NCBI RefSeq assembly: GCF_004365815.1
Contig: NZ_SODD01000050.1
Coordinates: 1-17,020 of the forward strand
Origin: Breznakia blatticola
Lineage (GTDB): Bacteria; Bacillota_I; Bacilli_A; Erysipelotrichales; Erysipelotrichaceae
Length of the DNA: 17,020 nucleotides
Direction of reading: 5' to 3'
The translations under genes and the position numbers were made by a program. A model generated the notes under the pieces. That model saw nothing but the letters and a program-made list of their open reading frames with translations, searched no databases and was not told the DNA's origin. Positions 2,139 to 16,677 of this stretch are shown in pieces (position 1 is the stretch's first letter; every line of letters starts with the position of its first letter).

Positions 2139-2459
2139 ATGTTAAAAACTTTAAAATATAAAGCATTACTAGTTATGTTTTATGTAACACCAATTTTAGC
2201 AGATACTACATTAGATGATGCAATTAAGTCTGCAGGAACAAAGGGACAAGAAACTATTAAATTGATTGGAGCTACACTAGCAGGAGTTGTTAGTGTGCTA
2301 ACTGGAGTAGCAGCACTTGCAATACTACTTAGTGCGCTATGGGATTCGTGGAAAAATAACGGTGCAGGTGAAGTTTTCCATAATCATGGTTCAAAATTCA
2401 TTGTACTTGCAGTTGTAGCTGTATTTGCTGGGGTTATTACGGCGTCATACTTTAGCTAA
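2139..2459 (+). CDS. Small secreted/membrane T4SS component with VirB2/TrbC-like topology (signal peptide plus two hydrophobic helices)
   Basis: GGAGG lies 8 nt upstream of the ATG. The N-terminal signal-like segment is ...VTPILA/DTT. Two long hydrophobic stretches follow (LIGATLAGVVSVLTGVAALAILLSALW and FIVLAVVAVFAGVITASYF). It sits directly upstream of the VirB6-like and VirB4-like genes, and its stop overlaps the next ATG (TAATG). Confidence 0.5.
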   Translation: MLKTLKYKALLVMFYVTPILADTTLDDAIKSAGTKGQETIKLIGATLAGVVSVLTGVAALAILLSALWDSWKNNGAGEVFHNHGSKFIVLAVVAVFAGVITASYFS

Positions 2460-3262
2460 TGGGTTTAATACTACGTTGGCTACTAGGAAAAATGGTAGAT
2501 CTAATTGCAGGATGCGTTGATCTAGCCATTGGGATGTCAACAAATGCATTCGATAATGCAATAGTTAAGGCTTTTTTAAACGCATTTCAAATTGTTGGAC
2601 TTCCTTTAGTGGGAGTCTCGGCATTGGTGGTATGTATAAAAGCTATTATTCAGATTGCAGATGGAGATGGTGTTTCGTTTGCTGATATTATGAAACGCTT
2701 AGTAGTTGGTACGTTAATGTACTCGTACGGTGTGAAAATCTTTAAGTATTTATACTTATACATTTTAGAAATTACAAATGAAATGATAACGATTCTAGCT
2801 GGAGCAGATGTTACATCTTTCTCCACTGAAGACTTAACTGGAGGAGCAAATGGATTGTTCTCTCTTATTCTAATGATTGTTGCTGTGTTCTATATGTTAA
2901 AGACAATTATGAGTATTCTTGAGAGATTTTGGTTGCTTCTTATGACACTCTGTATGATGTATTTCTATATACCAGGTTACATTGCTGGAAATGATGAGTC
3001 ATTAATACTATGGGGAAAACAAGCTATAGGTTTTGCGTTAACACAACTATTTCAAACCTCAGTACTTGTGTTGGGTATTACCTTCTTTGTGCAAGGTGGA
3101 GGATTTTCAAACTTTGGATTGGCAATTGGAGCCATAATTGCAGCAAGTAAAGCTGATATGATACTAGATAAATTTGGACAATCGTCTGGTGGAAAGTTAT
3201 CAAATGTAGGACGTAATGCAATGTCTAGTGTATATTCAGCAAAAATGATTTTAAAGAAGTAA
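2459..3262 (+). CDS. Polytopic membrane protein, VirB6/TrbL-like T4SS channel component
   Basis: 267 aa with multiple hydrophobic helices throughout. It is translationally coupled to the upstream gene and lies between the VirB2-like and VirB4-like genes, as in other Gram-positive T4SS loci. Confidence 0.6.
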   Translation: MGLILRWLLGKMVDLIAGCVDLAIGMSTNAFDNAIVKAFLNAFQIVGLPLVGVSALVVCIKAIIQIADGDGVSFADIMKRLVVGTLMYSYGVKIFKYLYLYILEITNEMITILAGADVTSFSTEDLTGGANGLFSLILMIVAVFYMLKTIMSILERFWLLLMTLCMMYFYIPGYIAGNDESLILWGKQAIGFALTQLFQTSVLVLGITFFVQGGGFSNFGLAIGAIIAASKADMILDKFGQSSGGKLSNVGRNAMSSVYSAKMILKK

Positions 3263-3275
3263 GGAACGAAAAAAT

Positions 3276-6017
3276 ATGAATCAAAAAAAAGATACTAAGT
3301 ATTATTATTACCCAAAATATGTTCCACCAACAATGATGGTGAAAGGAATCTATTTCTATGAATGGATAATTGCAGTTGTAATTTTCTCCTTGTGTTTATG
3401 GATTCTTGGATATATAGGATTATTATTTGGACTAATATTTGGATCGACGGTATTGATACTTACTCATCGAAGCGATGGGAGAGAGAATTTTTTAGGACAA
3501 TTAAGTTCTTCCGTAAAATATATTTTTAGTCAAAGAGTTTTGATTAAACGGCCAAGAGAGGATGTGGTTGAAATCGAAGAAACAAAGGTTGATATGAAAT
3601 CAAAAAAAATAAGAAAAAAGGATAAGAAGAAAAAGCCATCAAAGAATAAACAAGAATTTATGCAAGATAGTTTTCCTTTTCGTTCAATAGAGGATGGATA
3701 CATCCGTATGAATGATGGAAGAGTAATGATCTTCTTACGAGTGAATGGTAATAATCTAGATTTCTTGAGTTTTCGCGAAATAGAAGAAATGAACAAAAAC
3801 TTATCTAAAGAGTTTGACAGAAATAAAATGAAGATCTCGTTTTTTATACAAGACTCTACATTTAATATCAAACAAAACATTAATTTTGTAAGATCAGTGG
3901 CAGAAAAAAGTAAAGTAGCGTTTCTACGCCGACTTGGAAATGAGACTGCTAGTTTCATGGATGTTCAAAAGAAGACAGCAACCAAGAAAGCAAACTTTCT
4001 TAGAGTTGTAGTTACACAAAAACAATTAGCTACATCAAGTGTAGATGACATAGTTGATAAGACGATTAAATTATTTAAAGATTCTTTAGGCTTAGAAAGA
4101 ACAACACAGTTGGAATTAAAGCAAATGTTAGCAATTTATGCGCAACGATTATTTGCAGAGAAACTGCCTGACACAGAGTTAGAACTTGAAGAAAGATATG
4201 AAGAATTCTTATTGGTGAAGAAAAAGCGTGAGGAGAAAAAGATTCAGCTTCCAGGAGTTTATGAATTCAAGGATTTCATTACTCCAGTCACGACAAATTT
4301 TAAATCAGAAAAAGTGTACTTAGGTAGTAATGTCTTAAAAACATATGGAGTATCAAGTTTCTTAGCAAGTACCGAATACAATAACTTATTTGCTAAGATC
4401 TCTACATTAAAAGGAGTAACAACTTCAATCCATATGGACGAATTGTCTTTATCTAGATTTAGATCGAATGTTTCACTTGATGTAAGAGCAAAGGGGAATA
4501 CTACAAATGATGTGGTTGATGCTATTGATGCAGAACTGGATAAAGAAAGTGTATTAGATTCTTATAAAAGAATTAGAACAAACAACCAAAAGATGTTTTA
4601 CATTACTGTATACTTTCAACTTGTTGCTTCAAGTGATGATGAGTTTGATATACTTGAGGCACAATTTAAAGAAGAGTGTGACAATGTAGGAGTAACTGTA
4701 GATCCTTTACAAACAAAACAAAAAGATGCATGGATATCGGTGAATCCAGTAGGAAAGAACATGTTGGATAAGTATATCAAACAAAATATTCCTTCGGAAT
4801 CAGTAGCGAATCTTTATCCATTTAATGATCCATCAGTGTTAGAAAAGAATGGGTTACCTCTTGGGAATATCACGGACCGTTCAGAAATCGTGTTGTTTAA
4901 TCCTTTCACAAATAGGGGAGCAAATAACAATATTCTTATCTTAGGTTATTCAGGAGTTGGGAAAACTGTTCTGATGTGGTTACTTATGCAGAATGCAGCT
5001 CTATCTGCCTATTATATTAGAAACATAGATGTTGAGGGTATTTGTGTCGACTTCATTCAAAAAATGGGTGGTATTAACATTGACATGGCAGGTAACAATG
5101 AATATGCAATTAACCCTCTTCAGATACGTACACCAGATGAAGTGGAAAATGGAATTGTTGATGATTATATCTCAGAGGTGAAAAACTTCATGAGGATCTA
5201 CAAACCGGATTGGACGAATAGAACGCTAGATATTTTTGAAGAGTTTTTGAATAAAACGTATCGTTCAAAAGATATATACAACTCTTCAGATTTAAAGTTG
5301 TTAAAACCAAGTGATTATCCAATCTTTAGCGACGTTGTAAAAATTGTATCAGAGGCGAAGTCTAATTGGACAGAAGAATCTATTGGTACAAAAGATGATT
5401 ACGATGAAATTATTATCGGTTTACGTTCATGTACAGAAGGTGCAGATGCTAAGTTGTTTAATCGACACACGAATTTAGGTGGATATGATGTTGACGAACT
5501 GCAGTTAATAAACTTCGATATTTCTAAAATGCTAAACTCAGATCTAAACCGAAAGTTAGCACAATGGTCAAATGTCTTTACGTACATCTCTCAGTTTGTA
5601 AATGACAATATGAAGCGTTCGAAAGAAATTATGGTATTCATTGATGAACTACATACATTTTTGAAGAAACAGTATATGTCGGTTGTAGAAATACTTGAGA
5701 CGTATGAGCGTCGTTTCCGCAAGTATAACGCGTCTTTTGTTAAAGCTACACAAACGGTAGAAGAACTTGATAACGATGATGACGACATGAAAGAGAAGGT
5801 AAAAACACTATTCTCTCAACCAGCAACAAAGTTTATGTTTCACTTAGGTGATATTAAGTATGAACAAGTCGCTTCAATGATGAAATTGAAATCAACAGAA
5901 GTAGAAAAGCTCCAAGAAAAACGACAAGGAAAATGTTTGATGCGTATCGGAAGTAGTACATATGATTTGTCTGTAATGATGCCAGAATGGTTTAAGGAAG
6001 TTAAGGCAGACGCATAA
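3276..6017 (+). CDS. virB4: VirB4-family T4SS ATPase with an N-terminal VirB3/TcpE-like transmembrane module (fusion)
   Basis: 913 aa. The N-terminus (YYYYPKYVPPTMMVKG) is followed by two hydrophobic helices and a Lys-rich linker. Walker A is GYSGVGKT (nt 4944-4967). Walker B-like is IMVFIDELH. Confidence 0.92.
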   Translation: MNQKKDTKYYYYPKYVPPTMMVKGIYFYEWIIAVVIFSLCLWILGYIGLLFGLIFGSTVLILTHRSDGRENFLGQLSSSVKYIFSQRVLIKRPREDVVEIEETKVDMKSKKIRKKDKKKKPSKNKQEFMQDSFPFRSIEDGYIRMNDGRVMIFLRVNGNNLDFLSFREIEEMNKNLSKEFDRNKMKISFFIQDSTFNIKQNINFVRSVAEKSKVAFLRRLGNETASFMDVQKKTATKKANFLRVVVTQKQLATSSVDDIVDKTIKLFKDSLGLERTTQLELKQMLAIYAQRLFAEKLPDTELELEERYEEFLLVKKKREEKKIQLPGVYEFKDFITPVTTNFKSEKVYLGSNVLKTYGVSSFLASTEYNNLFAKISTLKGVTTSIHMDELSLSRFRSNVSLDVRAKGNTTNDVVDAIDAELDKESVLDSYKRIRTNNQKMFYITVYFQLVASSDDEFDILEAQFKEECDNVGVTVDPLQTKQKDAWISVNPVGKNMLDKYIKQNIPSESVANLYPFNDPSVLEKNGLPLGNITDRSEIVLFNPFTNRGANNNILILGYSGVGKTVLMWLLMQNAALSAYYIRNIDVEGICVDFIQKMGGINIDMAGNNEYAINPLQIRTPDEVENGIVDDYISEVKNFMRIYKPDWTNRTLDIFEEFLNKTYRSKDIYNSSDLKLLKPSDYPIFSDVVKIVSEAKSNWTEESIGTKDDYDEIIIGLRSCTEGADAKLFNRHTNLGGYDVDELQLINFDISKMLNSDLNRKLAQWSNVFTYISQFVNDNMKRSKEIMVFIDELHTFLKKQYMSVVEILETYERRFRKYNASFVKATQTVEELDNDDDDMKEKVKTLFSQPATKFMFHLGDIKYEQVASMMKLKSTEVEKLQEKRQGKCLMRIGSSTYDLSVMMPEWFKEVKADA

Positions 6018-7450
6018 TGGCATGGCAAGCAAAAGTAGCTGAAGCTGCAGGGAAAATTCTACTCGGAAAATCAATAGAAAAAGATGGAGCTATGGGACCG
6101 ATCATAATGATTGCGACTGCAGCTCTAATCCCAGTGATATTTATAGTAGCGTTATTCTCTGGGGGGAATGGGACTGGTCAAGATATATACGAGAAGGCAT
6201 TCAACAATATTGAGTGTAGTCAAGATTATTACTACTATCTTGAGGATATACGTTTTTTTGATTCATACACATATCCTGATGGAGTAGAGGCTACGGATGA
6301 AAAGAAAATAGAAGAACGTATGCAACAAGATTATTTTCAAATTACTACTCCTCCAGGTAATACATCAGCAAATACTTTTCCTGGACAAAATAATCAAGCA
6401 CGGCCATTAAATGTATGTATCTTGCAAAGTGATGAAACAATTGTAAATACACTTATAATAAAGTATGGAGTAGATGAAAATCTTAAACAAGAAATTTTAG
6501 AGTCTGTGCAACAAATGAGAAATGGAAGAAACAACTTCATCTTACCCGTTGCAAATTCTCCTAAGGTTTTAGGTAAATACGGACAAGATAAGAAGCTGAA
6601 AGGAATTGAGTTAGAGGCACCTGAAGGAACGGAAGTGGTTGCTGTTCATGATGGAGTGATAGAAGATATCGTGACATCTAAAGATACCTACTATGGCGTG
6701 AATGAAAAAGGTGATGTTGTTGAAAAGACTAAAGGTCTAACAATTGTAATTAAGCATGACACAATTCTTGGTTTAAATAAATTTGGTGAATATGACACAA
6801 GAATAGTTTATTCTCATATTCCGAATTTACAGAATGTTAAATGGAATGTAGGAGACAAAATATCTCAAGGTGAAGTGATTGGAACAAATGCTAAAAAGAC
6901 AGTATATTTTGAATTAAGAAAAAATGAAGATACAGCATTTGATCCAGCAACAATAATGTTCATTGAATCAAGTTTAGCAAGTAAAGGAGATCTAGGGTTA
7001 CCACTGGAAAATCCATTTACGATAACTTCAGAGTATGGAAAACGTGAGTATGCAGGAATGTCATTCCACCATGGAATTGACTTATCAAAGAGTGAAGGTT
7101 CATCAATTTACTCGGTAAGTGAGGGGGAAGTGATTGAAGCAAATAACACATGTGACCCATTGAAAGGAGAGACTCTTTGTCCTTCTGGTGGATATGTACC
7201 ATGGGGTGGAAATTATGTACTTATAAAATCAACAATAGACAACCAGGACTATTACATAGCATATTGTCACATGAGTAGGTCACTCTTAAAAATAGGTGAT
7301 AAAGTTCATAAAGGACAGATCGTTGGTTACCAGGGCAACAGTGGAAATTCCTATGGTTCACATCTCCATTTGGAAGTGAGGAAAGAGCCAGGTAAACAGG
7401 AAAACAGTACGGTTAATCCGAGAGAGATTATCAACTTTGGAGAACAGTAA
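6017..7450 (+). CDS. Membrane-anchored peptidoglycan hydrolase (VirB1 functional analogue) with one degenerate and one intact M23/LytM domain
   Basis: 477 aa with an N-terminal TM helix (IIMIATAALIPVIFIVALF). The C-terminal domain has HHGID (H351, H352 and D355; nt 7067-7081) and HLHLE (7361-7375). The upstream domain (~6584-6940) has the M23 fold signature (EAPEGTEVVAVHDGVIEDIV ... GDKISQGEVIG) but lacks the metal ligands. Confidence 0.9.
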   Translation: MAWQAKVAEAAGKILLGKSIEKDGAMGPIIMIATAALIPVIFIVALFSGGNGTGQDIYEKAFNNIECSQDYYYYLEDIRFFDSYTYPDGVEATDEKKIEERMQQDYFQITTPPGNTSANTFPGQNNQARPLNVCILQSDETIVNTLIIKYGVDENLKQEILESVQQMRNGRNNFILPVANSPKVLGKYGQDKKLKGIELEAPEGTEVVAVHDGVIEDIVTSKDTYYGVNEKGDVVEKTKGLTIVIKHDTILGLNKFGEYDTRIVYSHIPNLQNVKWNVGDKISQGEVIGTNAKKTVYFELRKNEDTAFDPATIMFIESSLASKGDLGLPLENPFTITSEYGKREYAGMSFHHGIDLSKSEGSSIYSVSEGEVIEANNTCDPLKGETLCPSGGYVPWGGNYVLIKSTIDNQDYYIAYCHMSRSLLKIGDKVHKGQIVGYQGNSGNSYGSHLHLEVRKEPGKQENSTVNPREIINFGEQ

Positions 7451-7468
7451 GCTGTTGTTTCAATGCGA

Positions 7469-7490
7469 GGGTGACAGTCACTGTCACCCT
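7469..7490. repeat. 22-nt GC-rich palindrome GGGTGACAGTCACTGTCACCCT, copy 1
   Basis: 9-bp arms GGGTGACAG/CTGTCACCC around TCA. It lies 19 nt after the hydrolase stop. An identical copy is at 7739-7760. Confidence 0.9.
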
Positions 7491-7507
7491 ATCTACGAAA
7501 TATCAAA

Positions 7508-7722
7508 GGTTGCCAAAATAATACGTAAAATAAGAGGAATATGAAGAAAATGTATAGATAGTTGCTATTTTATCGATTGATGTACAACAAAAGTTGCCAA
7601 AAATGGCAACTCGAAAAATCAATGTTTATCATGGTTTTTAGTAGCCGGCTCTGCCGGATGCTGTTAAATGGCAACTTAGAGTTGCCATCCTTTATCCTGC
7701 ATAACCACCAAATATGGTGGTT
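7508..7722. other. Candidate origin of transfer (oriT): cluster of six (A/G)GTTGC(C/T)A 8-mers and three further hairpin-forming inverted repeats
   Basis: 8-mers at 7508-7515 and 7560-7567 (degenerate). Inverted pair AGTTGCCA-aaaa-TGGCAACT at 7592-7611, and the flipped pair TGGCAACT-tag-AGTTGCCA at 7669-7687. CCGGC-tct-GCCGG at 7645-7657. AACCACCA-aata-TGGTGGTT at 7703-7722. The region is non-coding, lies between convergent genes, and is about 1 kb from the relaxase operon. Confidence 0.5.
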
Positions 7723-7738
7723 GGGGTAAAAATTGGGG

Positions 7739-7760
7739 GGGTGACAGTCACTGTCACCCT
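7739..7760. repeat. 22-nt GC-rich palindrome GGGTGACAGTCACTGTCACCCT, copy 2
   Basis: Identical to 7469-7490. It is preceded by extra G residues, giving a G7 run at 7735-7741. It lies 10 nt beyond the stop of the minus-strand gene 7770-8171. Confidence 0.9.
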
Positions 7761-7769
7761 TACCAATTT

Positions 7770-8171
7770 TTACTCGGTGTCGGCTTCAGGAATTGCTCCT
7801 GTGGGCGAGTTCAGTTCTTTATACTGAATTAATAGGCTAGCCATTTCCGGGTCTTTACCTGCATATTTTTCAAGCGTATCAAGCATCTTAATGTCTGCAA
7901 TTTTTTCTTGCATTTTATCATTAAGGACACGCTTGCGAATAGATGCGTCTTGGCGTTCGCGAAACGATTTCATATCAACCACATCAATGATTTCAAGCGG
8001 TTGGTGATACTTAGTGATTGCTTCGTATTGGTTGATTAGTTTTACAACTTGAACGCATACAGGCTCATTATCGTAGTTAGGGATAACAACCCAATCTTTC
8101 TCTTTTACGGATTTGTCAGTTAAGTAACAGTCAATTCCTTCATAACGGTTTTCTACTAAAATATAGTTCAT
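7770..8171 (-). CDS. Acidic hypothetical protein (133 aa), second gene of the SSB cassette
   Basis: GGAGAG lies 7 nt upstream of the ATG on the minus strand. By my count there are about 25 Asp/Glu against 18 Lys/Arg. No recognisable motif. It lies downstream of ssb and next to the oriT-like region. Confidence 0.7.
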   Translation of the reverse strand: MNYILVENRYEGIDCYLTDKSVKEKDWVVIPNYDNEPVCVQVVKLINQYEAITKYHQPLEIIDVVDMKSFRERQDASIRKRVLNDKMQEKIADIKMLDTLEKYAGKDPEMASLLIQYKELNSPTGAIPEADTE

Positions 8172-8207
8172 GATTTTTCTCTCCGTGTGCTATGGTTGGC
8201 ACTAATT

Positions 8208-8522
8208 TTAAACTTCTAAGTATTGAACTCTTTCGGCAACGAATTCATAGTTTGTGTAAGTCTTGTTTTCTTCACTCGTGTAGAAACTTGTAATCACGCG
8301 ACCCCTAATTGCCAGTAAGGTGTCTTTATCGCAAGTATCAATTACTTCTTCTGCAATGCCACGCCAAAGAGTGATTTGGAATATGTCACGTTCATAAACG
8401 CCGTCAGCATTTTTAAAATTGCGTTTTACGGCAAGTGATAAAAATGTGTACTTAATATTTACGCTTGTGAGTTGCAGGATTGGTTTTTCTACTATGCGAC
8501 CTACTAATATAAATTGATTCAC
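8208..8522 (-). CDS. ssb: Single-stranded DNA-binding protein, OB-fold core only (104 aa, no C-terminal acidic tail)
   Basis: MNQFILVGRIVEKPILQ...LAVKRNFKNADGVYERDIFQITLWRGIAEEV...AIRGRVITSFY...EFVAERVQYLEV aligns by eye along its length with the bacterial SSB OB fold (MNxVxLxGRL...LAVNRxFKN...DFxxxxxW...AExV...GRxxTRxY...VxAxxVQFLE). The SD AAAGGAG lies 6 nt upstream of the ATG. Confidence 0.85.
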   Translation of the reverse strand: MNQFILVGRIVEKPILQLTSVNIKYTFLSLAVKRNFKNADGVYERDIFQITLWRGIAEEVIDTCDKDTLLAIRGRVITSFYTSEENKTYTNYEFVAERVQYLEV

Positions 8523-8546
8523 ATGTCTGCTCCTTTCTCGGATGTA

Positions 8547-8666
8547 TCTTCCATCCGCACCCGATGAGTAACATCTGCGTAAGCAATCTTTGCAAGGGCG
8601 ACGAAGGAGTGCATTTACCCTTGCGAAGTTGCTGCAGGTGTTATCTTGTCGGTGGGGATGGAAAGA
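8547..8666 (+). promoter_or_regulatory. Long imperfect hairpin (~46 bp stem, 19-nt loop) upstream of ssb; candidate ssDNA promoter or single-strand origin (Frpo/sso-like), or alternatively back-to-back divergent promoters
   Basis: The left arm 8547-8598 pairs with the right arm 8618-8666. The stem has four G-T wobbles (8591/8625, 8574/8638, 8566/8647, 8565/8648) and bulges at 8587, 8579-8581, 8644, 8560 and 8664. On the minus strand the wobbles become A-C mismatches. The right arm carries TTGCGA (8621-8626), a 15-nt spacer, then TGtTATCTT (8639-8647). Confidence 0.45.
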
Positions 8667-8732
8667 AATTATAAAAAAGAAAATATTGGAAACGAAAAAT
8701 GATTTGATAAGAATTATTAGAAAAGAGGTTAT

Positions 8733-9179
8733 ATGAAAAAAGAAACATGTTTTGTTCGCGATCTAGACAAACAATTGTTAGATGAAGCAACAGAGATTGT
8801 TAGAAAAAAAGGAATAACAATCAAAACAGCAAAAGGAAACTTGGAATATATTTTGAAAGACTATGTCCGTTTACAACAAATGGGCATCTTAGAAAATCCA
8901 TATTTCTTGAAACAAGTAGAAAATATAATTGACAATAGATGTAATCGAATGGAGCGAACACTTGGTGGTAGATTATATACACTAACTGGAGAGCTTGCAA
9001 TTCAGACAGGAATTACAAACCGACTTGTTGCTGATTCAGTAGCTACCTTCTCAGAAGATGCTCCAGAAGAACGTATTAACAACTATCGAGTATTAGCTGT
9101 AGATGATCTAAGAAATAAAAAGAAACCAAGTACCTATATAGAACTTATAAAAGACGAGACTGAGGACTACGATGGCTAG
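8733..9179 (+). CDS. Putative relaxosome accessory protein with an N-terminal ribbon-helix-helix-like segment
   Basis: 148 aa. The N-terminus ETCFVRDLDKQLLDEATEIVRKKGITIKTAKGNLEYILKDYV fits the RHH strand-helix-helix pattern. The gene overlaps the relaxase start by 8 nt (ATGGCTAG). Confidence 0.5.
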   Translation: MKKETCFVRDLDKQLLDEATEIVRKKGITIKTAKGNLEYILKDYVRLQQMGILENPYFLKQVENIIDNRCNRMERTLGGRLYTLTGELAIQTGITNRLVADSVATFSEDAPEERINNYRVLAVDDLRNKKKPSTYIELIKDETEDYDG

Positions 9180-10842
9180 GCTGATTATGTATTCTGACTT
9201 TCTTTCGAACAAAGAAAAACCGCAGATATTAAATTCCCTGGAATATATCGCTAAACGTGAAGGAGTAGAAATTAATGGAAAGCAGAAGTTAATTGAACAG
9301 AAATATGATTTAAAAGGATTAGTAACAAAAAAACAAGAAGAGCTAATTACTGAAGTTGTAACTAAATATCCTGATACCAAAGAGTTGTTAGAATATCAAG
9401 AATACACAAATCAATCAACAAAACAAAACGCTAGTAACTTTATAACAATGGCAACACAAAGACTGGAAGAACTTGCATTCACTAATGCAGATTACATGAA
9501 ATACATTTCAGAACGCCCAGGAGTAGAAATTAACGAAAATGATACACATGGATTGTTCAATAAGGATGGAGTTGCTGATCTAAGTCATGTGAAAAGTACA
9601 TTTGCTGATCATCAAGGAGTAGTTTGGCGTGATGTTATTTCTTTACGAAGAGAAGATGCAATAGAGGTGGGTCTTGACTCTCGCGAAGCATGGCAAAAAA
9701 TGCTTTCTTCACATATGAACAAAAAAGCAGAATTGTTAGGTATTCCACAGGATGAATTTCATTGGTGTGCAGCGTTTCATGATGAAAGTTTTCATCCGCA
9801 CGTGCATGTAATGTCATGGTCGGATAATTTAGCAGCAGGTTATCAGGATGTACATGCAATAGAAAAGTTTAAATCAGTGCTTGCGAACGATATTTTTGAG
9901 AATGAAATGTGGTTAGCTAAAGAACTGAAAAATGAAGTTCGTATAGATCTAGAAACTGAGTACAAGAATAAATTAGATGAAATTGTAAAGGATGCAAGCA
10001 TTGCGTTTGTTGGAAAAAGTGAAGATGAAAATATTAATCCGATAGTAATGAATGTAGAAAACAAACTTGTTGATTTGTCTTCAGTCCTGAAAGAGAAAGG
10101 TTCTCGTGTCTATGGTTATCAAACTGCAGAGGCAAAAGATAAAACTGATGATCTTGTTTCATATTTGCTACATCAAGAAGAACTTAGACCACTACTTAAA
10201 GAATATGTTGAATCGAATCAAAGGCTTGTTGAATTTTACAAAAAGGATACATCTCAGTTTGCAGAAGAATTCTTAAATAAAATGATCCATCCAGAAAAAG
10301 GCGATCGTAAAGTCCTACATAATGCAGTTGTAGCTGCAGCATATGAAATAAAAGATGCGAATTATTCGAAGCAAATTGTTTATGGTGAACAATTGCATTC
10401 TTTAAATCAAAAGTTGTCTGAATATACAGTTCCTCATGATGTGAAAGACAAAGAAAAATTAGCACTTGCTATCAGCAAGGTTGGATTCCTTCAGGAGAAG
10501 AACTTGCATGAGATTGTTGAAGATTTAAAACCTCTTATTGATGATGAAGAAAAGGCTATGGAAATTATGCTTGATGCAAAGGACAATAGCTTATTAACGA
10601 AAACTGAAACACGTATGATCAATAACGCTTATGATGAGCGTATTGATGAAAAAGTAGATTTTGAAAATTATGAAAAAACAAATGAATCAATCAAACAAAA
10701 TGTAGCTGAAAGTTTAATCATGAGATTTATGACATTTTTATCTAATGACACGAATGAACATAATCATGAGTTGAAACGTATACAGTCAATTAAAGCGGAA
10801 GATCGTATGTTGATACGACATGCTCAAAAGCAAAGGAGATAA
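9172..10842 (+). CDS. Conjugative relaxase, MobA/MobL (MOBQ/MOBL-like) type
   Basis: 556 aa. Y25 sits in LEYIAKREGV (compare the YIQREG context of RSF1010 MobA Y25). VISLRRED is motif II-like. The His triad is FHDESFHPHVHV (nt 9778-9807). GAGGA lies 5 nt upstream of the ATG. The coupling protein gene follows. Confidence 0.85.
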   Translation: MARLIMYSDFLSNKEKPQILNSLEYIAKREGVEINGKQKLIEQKYDLKGLVTKKQEELITEVVTKYPDTKELLEYQEYTNQSTKQNASNFITMATQRLEELAFTNADYMKYISERPGVEINENDTHGLFNKDGVADLSHVKSTFADHQGVVWRDVISLRREDAIEVGLDSREAWQKMLSSHMNKKAELLGIPQDEFHWCAAFHDESFHPHVHVMSWSDNLAAGYQDVHAIEKFKSVLANDIFENEMWLAKELKNEVRIDLETEYKNKLDEIVKDASIAFVGKSEDENINPIVMNVENKLVDLSSVLKEKGSRVYGYQTAEAKDKTDDLVSYLLHQEELRPLLKEYVESNQRLVEFYKKDTSQFAEEFLNKMIHPEKGDRKVLHNAVVAAAYEIKDANYSKQIVYGEQLHSLNQKLSEYTVPHDVKDKEKLALAISKVGFLQEKNLHEIVEDLKPLIDDEEKAMEIMLDAKDNSLLTKTETRMINNAYDERIDEKVDFENYEKTNESIKQNVAESLIMRFMTFLSNDTNEHNHELKRIQSIKAEDRMLIRHAQKQRR

Positions 10843-10847
10843 AACAA

Positions 10848-12857
10848 ATGATATTAGGAGCAGTAAACTCATTTGAAGAACTATTAACAAATCTTGGTCC
10901 AGTAAAAGTAGTGTTTTATGCTTTTCTATTGTTGTTTGCAATAATAGGAACAATTTACTTGAACAAGCGTAATCGACTTGATCAGTTGAAATCAAAAAAA
11001 GTTGGGGACGGCCAACATGGAACAGATAAGTTTTTAAACCTAAAAGAAATGGAAAAACTATACAAAACGATTAAAATTCCAAACGAGATGACAGATATGT
11101 CATCAGAATGGTTGCCAGGTAGAATATTGCATTTTAATCCACAAACAAGGGAAGCTATTATTGATACCTCTTATACACATGCTGCAGTTGAGGCTCCAAC
11201 AGAGACTGGGAAGACTACTACTTATGTTGTTCCAAATGCTCAATACAATTTGATGGCTGGAACATCAATGGTGATTCCTTGTATTAAACCAGAGCTTATT
11301 GATTTATTGGCACAAGATGCAAAGGAGTTGGGGTATGAAGTAGGGATTATTGATTTTAACAAGCCTGCAAAATCGATAGGTTTCGATTTCTTTGCCGATA
11401 TAAATGAATACATAGATAAATACAAAGAAGATCCAACAGATTTGATGGCCAAAGCTGAAGCAGAGTCTCTTGCTGGTCAACTTGCAAAAGATATAGTTAC
11501 TTCACGCGATCGATCTAATAGCGAAAACTCTTTCTTCCTAGGTTCATCAGAAGGACTTGTGCATGCTACAGTCTTACTTACGTCACTGTATGGTACTGCA
11601 AGTCAAAAACACTTAAGTAGTGTACGTTCACTTGTTCAAAACATAATGATGATGTCTCCTGAAGAAAATGAGGGAAGAGGCAATACATTTACAAGTAAAA
11701 TCCAAAGATTAATTGGACATATGCCTGAAGATTTCGGGCCGAGAAAGCATGTTGGTGCAGCTTTTGCATCGAATCAAGAGACTGAAGCCAATATTTACTC
11801 TTCAGTTCTAAATGACCTAAAGCCAATCAATAACTCACAAGCTGAACAAATTGTATCTGTGCCAGGTAAAAAAGACTGTTTTCAATTTATGGATCTAATT
11901 AATAAAAAATACGTATTATTTATTCACATGCCGGAGACTAAACCGGAGTTTTATATATTTGCAAAACTGATAATAAAAAAAATATGTATGCAATTATCTA
12001 ATTATGCAAATACAGAATGTAAGGGTGTTCTTCCTAAACCAGTGAAAATTATTTGGGATGAATTTGGTTTGTCGCCAAAGATTGATAAATTTGATGAAGA
12101 AATGGCAATTGATAGAGGTAAGCATATTTTGTTTGATTTAATTTACCAGGACACATCACAATTAGTGAAAATATATGGTGAAGAAGACAAAGATGTCATT
12201 TTGCATCAGTGCGCATCAGAGATTATCCTTGGTATTTCTCCAACAAATGTAGATCGTGCTGAAGAACTATCAAAAGCAATAGGTAAAAATACAATACTAT
12301 CTGGTTCTGTTACGCGTAGTCATAATACTGGACGTGGAGGGACAGGTGATTCGATTACACACCAAATGATGGAACGTGAGCTTATGACTGTTGGTGAAAT
12401 TCTTCGCATGGAAAAGAAAAATCAACGGTTAGTATTTAGACGTGGTGAATATCCATTTCTTGCAAATTTTCCTTCTTACTATAAAGAAGAATGGGGTTTA
12501 ACGCCTAAGCCATATATGGAAGAAAATTCCGATCCACAATACTATGGAGTAGATTACCTGTCATTTGATCATGTTATTGAAGTTTTGGATGAAAATAAAG
12601 ATATGACAGTTACTACTCATACTGGAGTTATCACCAATTTCTCTCCAGCCACAAAAAGCACTGGAGATGATGCGTTGGCAGAGTTAGCAATGAAATTATA
12701 CGAGCTATCAAATAATGATGAACATGTAAAACAGCTGTGTTTAGAAAAACAGTGGCCAAAGATTATGAATGCAATGAAACCATACTACAACAAAATTACT
12801 AAAATGGAATTACAGGCATTAATGATTGGCTATCAAGAAAGAATTGAAAGGAGCTAA
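10848..12857 (+). CDS. virD4: Type IV coupling protein (VirD4/TraG family ATPase)
   Basis: 669 aa with an N-terminal TM helix (VVFYAFLLLFAIIGTIYL). Walker A is APTETGKTTT (nt 11193-11216). Walker B is KIIWDEFG. AAAGGAGA lies 8 nt upstream of the ATG. Confidence 0.9.
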   Translation: MILGAVNSFEELLTNLGPVKVVFYAFLLLFAIIGTIYLNKRNRLDQLKSKKVGDGQHGTDKFLNLKEMEKLYKTIKIPNEMTDMSSEWLPGRILHFNPQTREAIIDTSYTHAAVEAPTETGKTTTYVVPNAQYNLMAGTSMVIPCIKPELIDLLAQDAKELGYEVGIIDFNKPAKSIGFDFFADINEYIDKYKEDPTDLMAKAEAESLAGQLAKDIVTSRDRSNSENSFFLGSSEGLVHATVLLTSLYGTASQKHLSSVRSLVQNIMMMSPEENEGRGNTFTSKIQRLIGHMPEDFGPRKHVGAAFASNQETEANIYSSVLNDLKPINNSQAEQIVSVPGKKDCFQFMDLINKKYVLFIHMPETKPEFYIFAKLIIKKICMQLSNYANTECKGVLPKPVKIIWDEFGLSPKIDKFDEEMAIDRGKHILFDLIYQDTSQLVKIYGEEDKDVILHQCASEIILGISPTNVDRAEELSKAIGKNTILSGSVTRSHNTGRGGTGDSITHQMMERELMTVGEILRMEKKNQRLVFRRGEYPFLANFPSYYKEEWGLTPKPYMEENSDPQYYGVDYLSFDHVIEVLDENKDMTVTTHTGVITNFSPATKSTGDDALAELAMKLYELSNNDEHVKQLCLEKQWPKIMNAMKPYYNKITKMELQALMIGYQERIERS

Positions 12858-15672: not shown

Positions 15673-16677
15673 CTAAAAATATCTTTTTGTTAGAGAATTG
15701 AGTAAATTTGATACTTCCAAAGAACTCTCTGGAAGCAAATGTGCATATGTTTTCATCACTTCATCAATCGAATCGCCTATACGCATTGCAATAGCTATTA
15801 CGGGTATTTTGTTATTGATAAGTAAAGACACATGTGAATGTCTTAAATCGTGAAGACGAATATGTGAAAGCCCTGCAGATTCTTCATAGCGTATTTTTGC
15901 CTTTCTTAAAGTTTCAAAAGCCATAGGCCTTGTCTGTCTTCCAAAAATAAAGTTATCCTTTCTATATTTATCAGATTGAATAGCAATTGTGTGAAGTGCG
16001 GTAAGTATCTTTTTGGTACTATCGTCTATTTCTATAAGGCGATACGAATTAAGGTTTTTAGGTCCTTTAACTTTTTGCTTTCCATGAACGTTCGCAACGG
16101 ATTCATCTATCTCAATGTAGTTATCTCTAAAATCATTCCATTTTAGAGCAAGTAATTCACCTCTTCGAAGACCGGCAAAATAAAATAACATAAAAATTGC
16201 TTTGTGTTCTAGATCAGTAATTTGGGAGAAAAACTTATAAAATTCTACTTCTGACCATATTTTCATTTCTTCTTTCTTTGTTGTTCTGCGTGGCATTCCT
16301 ACACGAGAAACAGGATTCCACTTAGTATCGTAAATTTTGTTGATCCAATTAAAAAATTTATTAAATACTTTATATCGATTAACAAGTGTAGTGTAGAAGC
16401 AATTGTTTTTCATCTCTAATTGCCACTGTATAATATGATCAGGTTTTATATCGTATAATCTCCATGTGCCAAAGAAGGGTTTAATGTGAAGACGATAAAT
16501 TGAGTCGTCATTTTCACATGTAGTAATTTCTTTGTTAAGGAGCGAGTGCTCCATATATTTCTCCCAATAAAAATCTAATACTTTATTTAATTCCTTGTTG
16601 ATGTGAGTTTTTTGAAGTAAACCAGGGTTTTCTTCAATTAGTTCTATCATCATTTCCTTTAGTAATTCTTTATGCAT
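15673..16677 (-). CDS. int: Tyrosine site-specific recombinase (phage integrase family) with an N-terminal SAM-like core-binding domain
   Basis: 334 aa. Box I Arg is in AGLRRGELLALKW. HDLRHSHVSLL supplies the H-x-x-R. The catalytic Tyr is in VMKTYAHLLP. The SD GAGGTGA lies 7 nt upstream of the ATG. Confidence 0.93.
   Translation of the reverse strand: MHKELLKEMMIELIEENPGLLQKTHINKELNKVLDFYWEKYMEHSLLNKEITTCENDDSIYRLHIKPFFGTWRLYDIKPDHIIQWQLEMKNNCFYTTLVNRYKVFNKFFNWINKIYDTKWNPVSRVGMPRRTTKKEEMKIWSEVEFYKFFSQITDLEHKAIFMLFYFAGLRRGELLALKWNDFRDNYIEIDESVANVHGKQKVKGPKNLNSYRLIEIDDSTKKILTALHTIAIQSDKYRKDNFIFGRQTRPMAFETLRKAKIRYEESAGLSHIRLHDLRHSHVSLLINNKIPVIAIAMRIGDSIDEVMKTYAHLLPESSLEVSNLLNSLTKRYF

Follow-up and report, generated by a model that had tools for sequence, protein, structure and literature searches.

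Conjugation starts from an origin of transfer (oriT), the site at which the DNA is nicked, and such sites are seldom annotated in the integrative conjugative elements (ICEs) of gut Firmicutes. For MobL/MobP3 relaxases, our literature search turned up a mapped oriT in pLS20 only (PMC5313138). The nick regions of MOBP systems follow the consensus (C/T)ATCCTG(C/T), and RP4 and the Helicobacter pylori tfs4 oriT share the nick octamer TATCCTGC, which in tfs4 was recognised by the same sequence logic that we apply here and then confirmed by cleavage (PMC3772185). In the leading regions of conjugative elements, genes are found for which the transferred strand is the template (PMC11541004). Here we analyse a window (the whole stretch of DNA examined, 17,020 nt) of the Erysipelotrichaceae bacterium Breznakia blatticola, which is an entire 17-kb contig of a 2.46-Mb genome and carries a conjugation cluster according to Pfam and NCBIfam annotation. 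From its sequence and that of related elements we conclude, with high confidence, that a 319-nt non-coding module between convergent genes (positions 7451-7769) is the oriT of an ICE. The ICE is of an ordinary type, and its oriT layout can be read in detail through its relatives.

The probable nick core and its association with relaxase genes

The most diagnostic element of the module is TTTATCCTGC at 7691-7700, which was invariant in 17 aligned cores and had gone unremarked in the sequence-only reading, an earlier note made from the letters of the window that proposed an oriT here. It is part of the nick core CCTTTATCCTGCAT (7689-7702, + strand), defined by the MOBP consensus, by alignment and by a covariance model, and includes TATCCTGC at 7693-7700 (+), which fits the MOBP nick consensus. 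The core is preceded by a nick-proximal inverted repeat with 9-bp arms, ATGGCAACT-tag-AGTTGCCAT (7668-7688, +), that is made of the same 8-mer as the more distal sites described below and ends 11 nt before the predicted nick (9-14 nt in relatives). By analogy with RP4 and tfs4, we predict that nic lies between G7699 and C7700 on the + strand. A hairpin, AACCACCA-aata-TGGTGGTT (7703-7722, +), follows directly 3' of the predicted nick; in the two nearest relatives, L055 and L141, its slot is taken by a different hairpin, ACTCAC-aaa-GTGAGT, and the more distant relatives compared have no hairpin directly 3' of the core.

The relaxase gene of the window (9172-10842, +) encodes a protein that scored 332.9 bits against the NCBIfam MobP3 model NF041499 (cutoff 150), far above its score against Pfam MobL PF18555 (53.6 bits, cutoff 28.5, E 2.4e-14). 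Its catalytic residues are intact (Y25 and H203-D-E..H208-P-H-V-H212, i.e. HDExxHPHVH) and invariant in an alignment of three sequences, and it is the only MobP3-type relaxase in its own genome. An RP4-like MOBP oriT is supported by the octamer, the 5'-proximal repeat, a MOBP relaxase with the Tyr and His triad, and the association of the core with relaxase genes, and an IncP-type nick site is predicted for this Gram-positive relaxase clade.

Searches with the DNA of the module and the 5 kb around it returned no match in plasmid and phage collections or in 60 related genomes, and comparisons were therefore anchored on proteins, with loci (L numbers) gathered by similarity to the relaxase and to the 148-aa product of the gene preceding it. 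A contig scan with the single relaxase gave no match, while a scan with the three-sequence alignment found loci. Eight other elements (L055, L141, L037, L140, L038/L142, L135, L138 and L139), which come from Breznakia, a Traorella metagenome-assembled genome, a 4.7-Mb genome and several metagenomes, agree in gene order with the window element and carry the same ordered module in the same position, with relaxases 41-48% identical to that of the window over the N-terminal 360 residues. Their modules measure 280-630 nt and are always followed by a homologue of the minus-strand gene for a 133-aa protein that adjoins the module in the window. The shared order comprises an array of motif dyads, the GC hairpin GGCTCTGCC with GATGT, a final inverted repeat of the same motif and (C)CTTT(T)ATCCTGC(A/G)T.

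In the window, the GC hairpin (CCGGC-tct-GCCGG, 7645-7657) forms, with its flanks and the GCTGT that follows (GATGT in relatives), a conserved unit at 7640-7664 (+) that is marked by covariation. Over 18 sequences, 91.7% of cells pair and six of the eight pairs show compensatory (double) changes; the covariation score of 0.563 compares with 0.154 in shuffles (0/500 reached it), and slid controls stayed at or below 0.145. On the strength of this comparison we take the hairpin, which stands some 45 nt 5' of the predicted nick, to be a probable oriT element of the whole family.

The core extends beyond the nine elements. A strict pattern search found it in eight Oscillospiraceae loci, and a covariance model built from the 17 aligned cores, the window included, had a match in 85 of 94 loci gathered by relaxase homology alone, nearly always 530-900 nt upstream of the relaxase start and on the strand opposite the relaxase. 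In L101, the one canonical locus whose open reading frames we read, the match lies just upstream of a small accessory gene, and the accessory genes of other canonical loci begin at comparable positions. Two further matches were to sequences outside the training set, one on an unrelated conjugative plasmid, pBMB68 of Bacillus thuringiensis (32 bits), and one on an Oscillospiraceae plasmid (40 bits), both upstream of accessory and mobP3 genes. The genome of the window itself contains a single match (7640-7704, 50.2 bits). That the core is tied to the relaxase gene across loci is the strongest argument that the site is an oriT, and the proposal of the sequence-only reading is thereby upheld by an RP4-type octamer beside an inverted repeat, by a MobP3/MobL relaxase and by a core conserved both syntenically and across relaxase loci.

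On pBMB68 (L144, NZ_CP010581.1), the core reads …GGCTTTGCC…CTTATCCTGCAT at 3200-3260 (-) and stands 115 nt upstream of the gene preceding mobP3; this plasmid offers a tractable system for the predicted nick.

Repeats, palindromes and the candidate binding protein

All the features that had been listed for 7451-7769 were found in place, and the flanking genes are indeed convergent. Six matches to RGTTGCYA occur in the module, the number claimed, at 7508, 7560, 7592, 7604 (-), 7669 (-) and 7680; the hairpin-capable pairs of 8-mers at 7592-7611 and 7669-7687 are present, as are the GC hairpin and the hairpin at 7703-7722. The whole window has seven matches versus 1.9 expected, and none of 200 shuffles reached seven. 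The claim that the 8-mer is confined to the module held for these six copies and failed for an exact GGTTGCCA at 11110, within the gene for the type IV coupling protein (T4CP), which had been overlooked when a 7/8 match near 9448 was given as the only one outside. As single-stranded DNA, the module folds with z = -9.35 relative to shuffles. An Rfam scan of the module returned sub-threshold chance matches only (MicX, 26.5 bits versus a gathering score of 75).

The dyad AGTTGCCA-aaaa-TGGCAACT at 7592-7611, with half-sites 12 bp apart, is a predicted accessory-protein site. Upstream of it, motif scan and spacing place two lone 8-mers, GGTTGCCA at 7508 and AGTTGCTA at 7560 (7508-7567, +), which appear to occupy the two distal dyad positions of the relatives with their partner half-sites degenerated; two dyads would thus have decayed to single sites in the window. 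Each relative has its own 6-9-mer in its dyads at a half-site spacing of 11-12 bp: the window uses AGTTGCCA and the others TGCGCA, GTGCGCA, TTGGGCAAG, TAAGCAAG or TACGTAA. In several elements, successive dyads lie about 54, 20 and 78 apart; the corresponding distances in the window are 52, 32 and 65. The earlier suggestion that the 8-mers are sites for an accessory protein gains from this architecture, in which the relatives' own motifs keep both dyad spacing and array layout, and by analogy we predict the dyads to be accessory-protein binding sites.

Ahead of the GC hairpin and of certain dyads, relatives carry a second conserved motif, the A-rich (G)ATRAATAAAGGG (L135 1530-1545 and 1680-1692; L138 5082-5095 and 5203-5216; L141 4503-4515 and 4612-4624; L055 3252-3264), and the window has a weaker version, CGTAAAATAAGAGGA, at 7522-7540. 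It may be the site of a host bending protein.

The likeliest partner for the dyads is encoded at 8733-9179 (+) by a gene that overlaps the relaxase start. Its product, the 148-aa candidate relaxosome accessory protein, matched the canonical accessory family of about 133 aa in a profile comparison (hhalign, 93.2%, E 3e-7) and is both a positional and a sequence homologue of the canonical MobP3 accessory protein. It is a plausible candidate for the binder of the 8-mers by its position and by analogy with RP4 TraJ, pLS20 Aux1/Aux2 and SmpO. The sequence-only reading had described it as a ribbon-helix-helix (RHH) protein; no RHH match was found in Pfam, NCBIfam or PHROGs, a profile search of the PDB gave chance hits only, and Foldseek with the AlphaFold2 model (mean predicted local distance difference test, pLDDT, 78.8) returned nothing below E = 2.6. 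The modelled monomer consists of coil (residues 1-12), helices at 13-25 and 33-49 and then a long helix, a model compatible with an RHH fold that needs a partner strand. Members of the canonical accessory family gave weak hits to RHH_1 (2/15, E ~0.009), and their N-termini are RHH-like in appearance (e.g. RFALWV...CKTQSEYIEKA).

The module is bounded by two identical palindromes, GGGTGACAGTCACTGTCACCC(T), at 7469-7490 and 7739-7760, 270 nt apart as reported, for which the chance expectation is 0. The left one, GGGTGACAGTCACTGTCACCCT, lies 19 nt downstream of the stop codon that ends the M23 hydrolase gene; the right one lies 10 nt from the stop codon of the 133-aa gene, inside a terminator-like 48-nt hairpin (7726-7773) that abuts this stop. 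The statement that neither is followed by a clean U-tract is correct; the right one forms the core of the longer hairpin. A terminator consensus scan flagged only 7737-7761 (+; tail ACCAATTTTT), the left palindrome and both minus-strand readings being passed over. A third identical copy lies on another contig of the same genome (G000:C16:42154-42174; L001 1501-1521), and the 9-mer CAGTSACTG at the palindrome centre is not enriched genome-wide (seven sites versus five for a control), only the full palindrome being special. The third copy is located 4 nt past the stop of a 230-aa gene that adjoins a gene for an LPXTG surface protein, and the contig in question probably belongs to this ICE as its adhesin part.

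Palindromes centred on CAGTSACTG, with differing outer stems, also bound the module in L055, L141, L038/L142 and L135 and occur at other gene ends of those relatives; the nearest gene end is a few to about 20 nt away in every element, and in L038/L142 and L135 they have A- and T-tracts on both sides, like bidirectional intrinsic terminators. On the basis of this gene-end position and of the A/T tracts in some relatives, the palindromes are most likely terminator-type insulators that would shield the relaxosome site from convergent transcription. They might instead be operators for a dimeric regulator encoded by the element, like the KorB sites of RK2, a role that would leave the oriT assignment unaffected and that we regard as possible though on the unlikely side. 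An operator would suit the conservation of the CAGTSACTG centre in elements whose outer stems differ, its central base of C or G regardless of strand, the lack of clean U-tracts in the window copies, and the overlap of a related L037 palindrome, ATGTCAACGGTTGACAT, with a -35 box that closely precedes the accessory gene; the tracts on both sides in L038/L142 and L135 and the gene-end position of the copies in all elements speak for termination, and no candidate regulator was found. A related 17-bp palindrome, ATGTCAAC(G/C)GGT(T)GACAT, which shares outer half-sites with the Breznakia palindrome ATGTCAGTGACTGACAT, occurs in L037 (9797-9813, 11727-11743 and 12173-12189) and in L140 (about 4171-4187), one copy overlapping the -35 box just upstream of the accessory gene in operator-like fashion.

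Putative leading region, rival readings and a proposed mechanism

Upstream of the module, the conjugation cluster encodes, all on the + strand, a DnaG-type primase (327-2126), a TrbL-like protein (2459-3262), a 913-aa ATPase (3276-6017) and the M23 hydrolase (6017-7450). Downstream, the genes for the acidic 133-aa protein (7770-8171, -) and for a short SSB (single-stranded DNA-binding protein) of 104 aa (8208-8522, -; Pfam SSB 1.7e-15, also NCBIfam) precede a strongly structured spacer (8523-8732), and the accessory and relaxase genes are followed by the T4CP gene (10848-12857, +; PF02534, 3.9e-42) and a tyrosine integrase gene (15673-16677, -). Other elements differ in their recombinases, which are serine recombinases in L135, L137, L140 and L141. 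Defence and anti-defence cargo surrounds the relaxase gene in L135, L139, L140, L142, L138 and L038. ArdA and ArdC, fused (ArdC-ArdA) or encoded separately, are placed between the long hairpin and the accessory gene, a ToxN toxin gene stands between those for the relaxase and the T4CP, and the cargo further includes AbiEi/AbiEii, nucleotidyltransferase (NTase)/HEPN pairs and a Fic protein. The window element has no such cargo.

Just 3' of the predicted nick come the 133-aa gene and then ssb, the second leading-region gene; the nicked strand is the template for both, which is consistent with the + strand assignment. A 125-146-aa homologue of the 133-aa protein follows the oriT in all nine elements (L037, L038, L055, L135, L138-L142 and the window; 20-79% identity); its only match is phrog_3489, a family of unknown function, and it is a candidate establishment or anti-defence protein. 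Upstream of ssb and outside the oriT core, folding revealed a long imperfect hairpin at 8547-8666 (+), with -34.5 kcal/mol on the + strand (z -7.4) versus -26.9 on the - strand. The analogous hairpins of L037, L038 and L055 favour the nick-bearing strand by 2.0-2.9 kcal/mol; this preference, seen in 4/4 elements, is a weak test that points in the same direction as the strand assignment. The 8547-8666 hairpin is a candidate Frpo-like single-strand promoter or priming site; alternatively, its hexamers may simply form a regular double-strand promoter that serves the accessory-relaxase operon. Inspection by eye shows TTGCGA-15-(TGT)TATCTT in the right arm of the hairpin, a pattern missing from the consensus-scan output. 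Imperfect hairpins of 120-170 nt upstream of leading genes recur in L037 (11575-11724), L038 (about 10020-10180) and L055 (about 4433-4603), and the right arms of the four have, again by eye, TTGCGA, TTGACA or TTGTAA, then 15 or 16 nt, then (TGT)TAnnnn.

Several observations weigh against an oriT organised as we describe. The core lies on the coding strand of the type IV secretion system (T4SS) and relaxase genes, 1.0 kb from the accessory gene and separated from it by two minus-strand genes (the 133-aa gene and ssb), while most canonical MobP3 loci have it opposite the relaxase strand, 530-900 nt upstream. The window's own covariance-model score is non-independent, the window being one of the 17 training sequences, whereas the hits in other loci are independent. 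The palindromes lack clean U-tracts here, and the overlap of the L037 copy with a promoter leaves room for a protein-binding role. The RHH fold of the 148-aa protein has no significant family, structure or fold match behind it. Finally, co-variation did not identify the binder of the 8-mers: in identity matrices of the leading protein, the N- and C-terminal parts of the accessory protein and of the relaxase, the T4CP and a 270-aa protein, the motif class followed none of them. All compared proteins share one common phylogeny, and L135 (TACGTAA) is nearest to L142 (GTGCGCA) in every one. With regard to orientation, we read the window subgroup as carrying an inverted block of oriT plus leading genes relative to canonical loci (7451-8732 in the window, 5372-6001 in L101), such that transfer of the relaxase and T4CP genes would come early and that of the T4SS genes at the end.

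On a rival reading, the true oriT is the structured spacer 8523-8732, directly upstream of the accessory and relaxase genes, and 7451-7769 is a regulatory or terminator region. pLS20 and most canonical loci keep their oriT directly upstream of the accessory gene (PMC5313138), and the hairpin at 8547-8666 is very stable. Against this placement, the covariance model found no match in the spacer even with filters off, its sole significant match in window and genome being 7640-7704, and the long hairpins of four elements share structure and a promoter-like motif and contain no nick-like core. The sequence-only reading had itself allowed for a nick between 8523 and 8732, and all that this interval holds is the different, long hairpin; we consider an oriT there very improbable.

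The repeats might also be read as an iteron-type replication origin or a centromere-like partition site with 8-mers that bind a Rep- or ParB-like protein, as they are element-specific, recur in arrays at helical-turn intervals and are restricted to a single intergenic region, and as the element carries its own DnaG-type primase. We saw no Rep or ParA/ParB gene in the window, the last dyad abuts the conserved nick core, and this core is tied to relaxase genes in 85/94 loci, all of which makes an origin or partition site very improbable; relaxase-driven rolling-circle replication from the oriT is compatible with our interpretation and no rival to it. That the module is a small insertion resembling a miniature inverted-repeat transposable element (MITE), as had been considered on account of the bounding palindromes, is suggested by the identity of the two 22-nt copies 270 nt apart, which would serve as terminal repeats, and by the third copy elsewhere in the genome. 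This third copy stands alone as a hairpin behind a gene and is no copy of the unit. The 341-nt unit occurs once in its own genome and was found neither in the 60 related genomes nor in plasmid or phage collections; no target-site duplication is seen, and in nine elements the same syntenic position is taken by a homologous module. We rejected the MITE reading on these grounds (single-copy unit, fixed synteny, no target-site duplication) and attach next to no probability to it.

For the module as an oriT, we propose the following mechanism. An accessory protein, most likely the product of 8733-9179, would bind the AGTTGCCA dyads as paired dimers, with half-sites 11-12 bp apart and four dyad positions over about 190 bp (7508-7687), the last being the inverted repeat 7668-7688. 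Together with the GC hairpin, the dyads would position the MobP3/MobL relaxase on the adjacent core CCTTTATCCTG/CAT (the slash marking the nick), where it would cut the + strand at G7699/C7700 and remain attached to the 5' end. The T4CP would then conduct the + strand into the recipient, where the 133-aa gene and ssb, both templated by the transferred strand, would arrive first, and the identical palindromes would stop both convergent transcription units short of the relaxosome site. More speculatively, the module might be a swappable specificity cassette in which an invariant core (GC hairpin plus TTTATCCTGC) is combined with switching motif arrays, the CAGTSACTG border palindromes acting as recombination or insulation boundaries. 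At least five motif switches among the nine ICEs (AGTTGCCA, TGCGCA/GTGCGCA, TTGGGCAAG, TAAGCAAG and TACGTAA), out of step with the protein phylogenies, would fit this idea, which we put forward with considerable doubt. If true, the repeat motif by itself would tell to which discrete cross-mobilisation group a MobP3/MobL ICE of gut Firmicutes belongs, as it does for the staphylococcal pWBG749 plasmids.

The window and its relatives yield a compact oriT model, consisting of the GC hairpin, a variable repeat and TTTATCCTG/C, with candidate sites in 85/94 relaxase-bearing loci that range from Erysipelotrichaceae and Oscillospiraceae to plasmids of Bacillus thuringiensis. This model could serve to annotate oriTs, to orient leading regions, in which anti-defence genes reside, and to search for mobilisable elements that have the site only. 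It predicts that a Gram-positive clade uses an IncP-type nick and that specificity resides in the variable dyads. This is no new kind of system and should hold little surprise for specialists; of some interest are the IncP-type core, the four-dyad architecture with switching motifs, the bounding palindromes and the inverted block.

Comparison with known systems

The nick octamer is identical to that of RP4 (IncP), TATCCTG/C, and RP4 likewise has, on its nicked strand, an inverted repeat that lies about 8-11 nt 5' of nic, and a MOBP-type relaxase with Tyr and HxDE..HxH (PMC3772185); a small accessory protein is expected at the nick-proximal repeat in both. The Breznakia element differs by its Gram-positive host and MobP3/MobL-clade relaxase, by four dyads of one 8-mer in place of the distinct TraJ and TraK sites of RP4, and by the extra conserved GC hairpin 45 nt 5' of the nick. 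Moreover, its module is bounded by palindromes and lies between convergent genes, whereas the RP4 oriT lies between divergent promoters. The tfs4 oriT of H. pylori, which is served by a VirD2-like relaxase, also has TATCCTGC directly 3' of an inverted repeat (PMC3772185); unlike the module, it lies immediately upstream of its relaxase gene, lacks a repeat array and is served by an unrelated relaxase lineage.

pLS20 (RelLS20/MOBL, Aux1/Aux2) has a relaxase of the same Pfam MobL family, a small accessory gene directly upstream of that for the relaxase, and an oriT rich in direct and inverted repeats (PMC5313138, PMC5675868). Most canonical relatives share the pLS20 arrangement and the window does not: its oriT lies on the coding strand, a two-gene leading cassette precedes the accessory gene, and there is one accessory gene where pLS20 has two RHH genes. 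The mapped pLS20 nick (after GAATCGGGGGCCGG, beside GGCTTTTTGCtgccGCAAAAAGCC) has no counterpart in the window, and the string ATCCTG is absent from the text of PMC5313138. The leading region resembles the Frpo region of the F plasmid, where ssb likewise sits near the start of the leading region, is templated by the transferred strand and is preceded by a long imperfect hairpin with promoter-like hexamers (PMC11541004, PMC9849209); here the host is Gram-positive and a Frpo-like role is putative.

Finally, the staphylococcal oriTs of the pWBG749 family (SmpO) combine a conserved core with variable repeats in specificity classes that are incongruent with phylogeny (PMC8136818). Their relaxase family and nick core are different, and the binding of SmpO was shown experimentally there, while here the binder is proposed from position and analogy; nevertheless, the incongruence between repeat motifs and proteins among the nine elements recalls the specificity switching of these oriTs.

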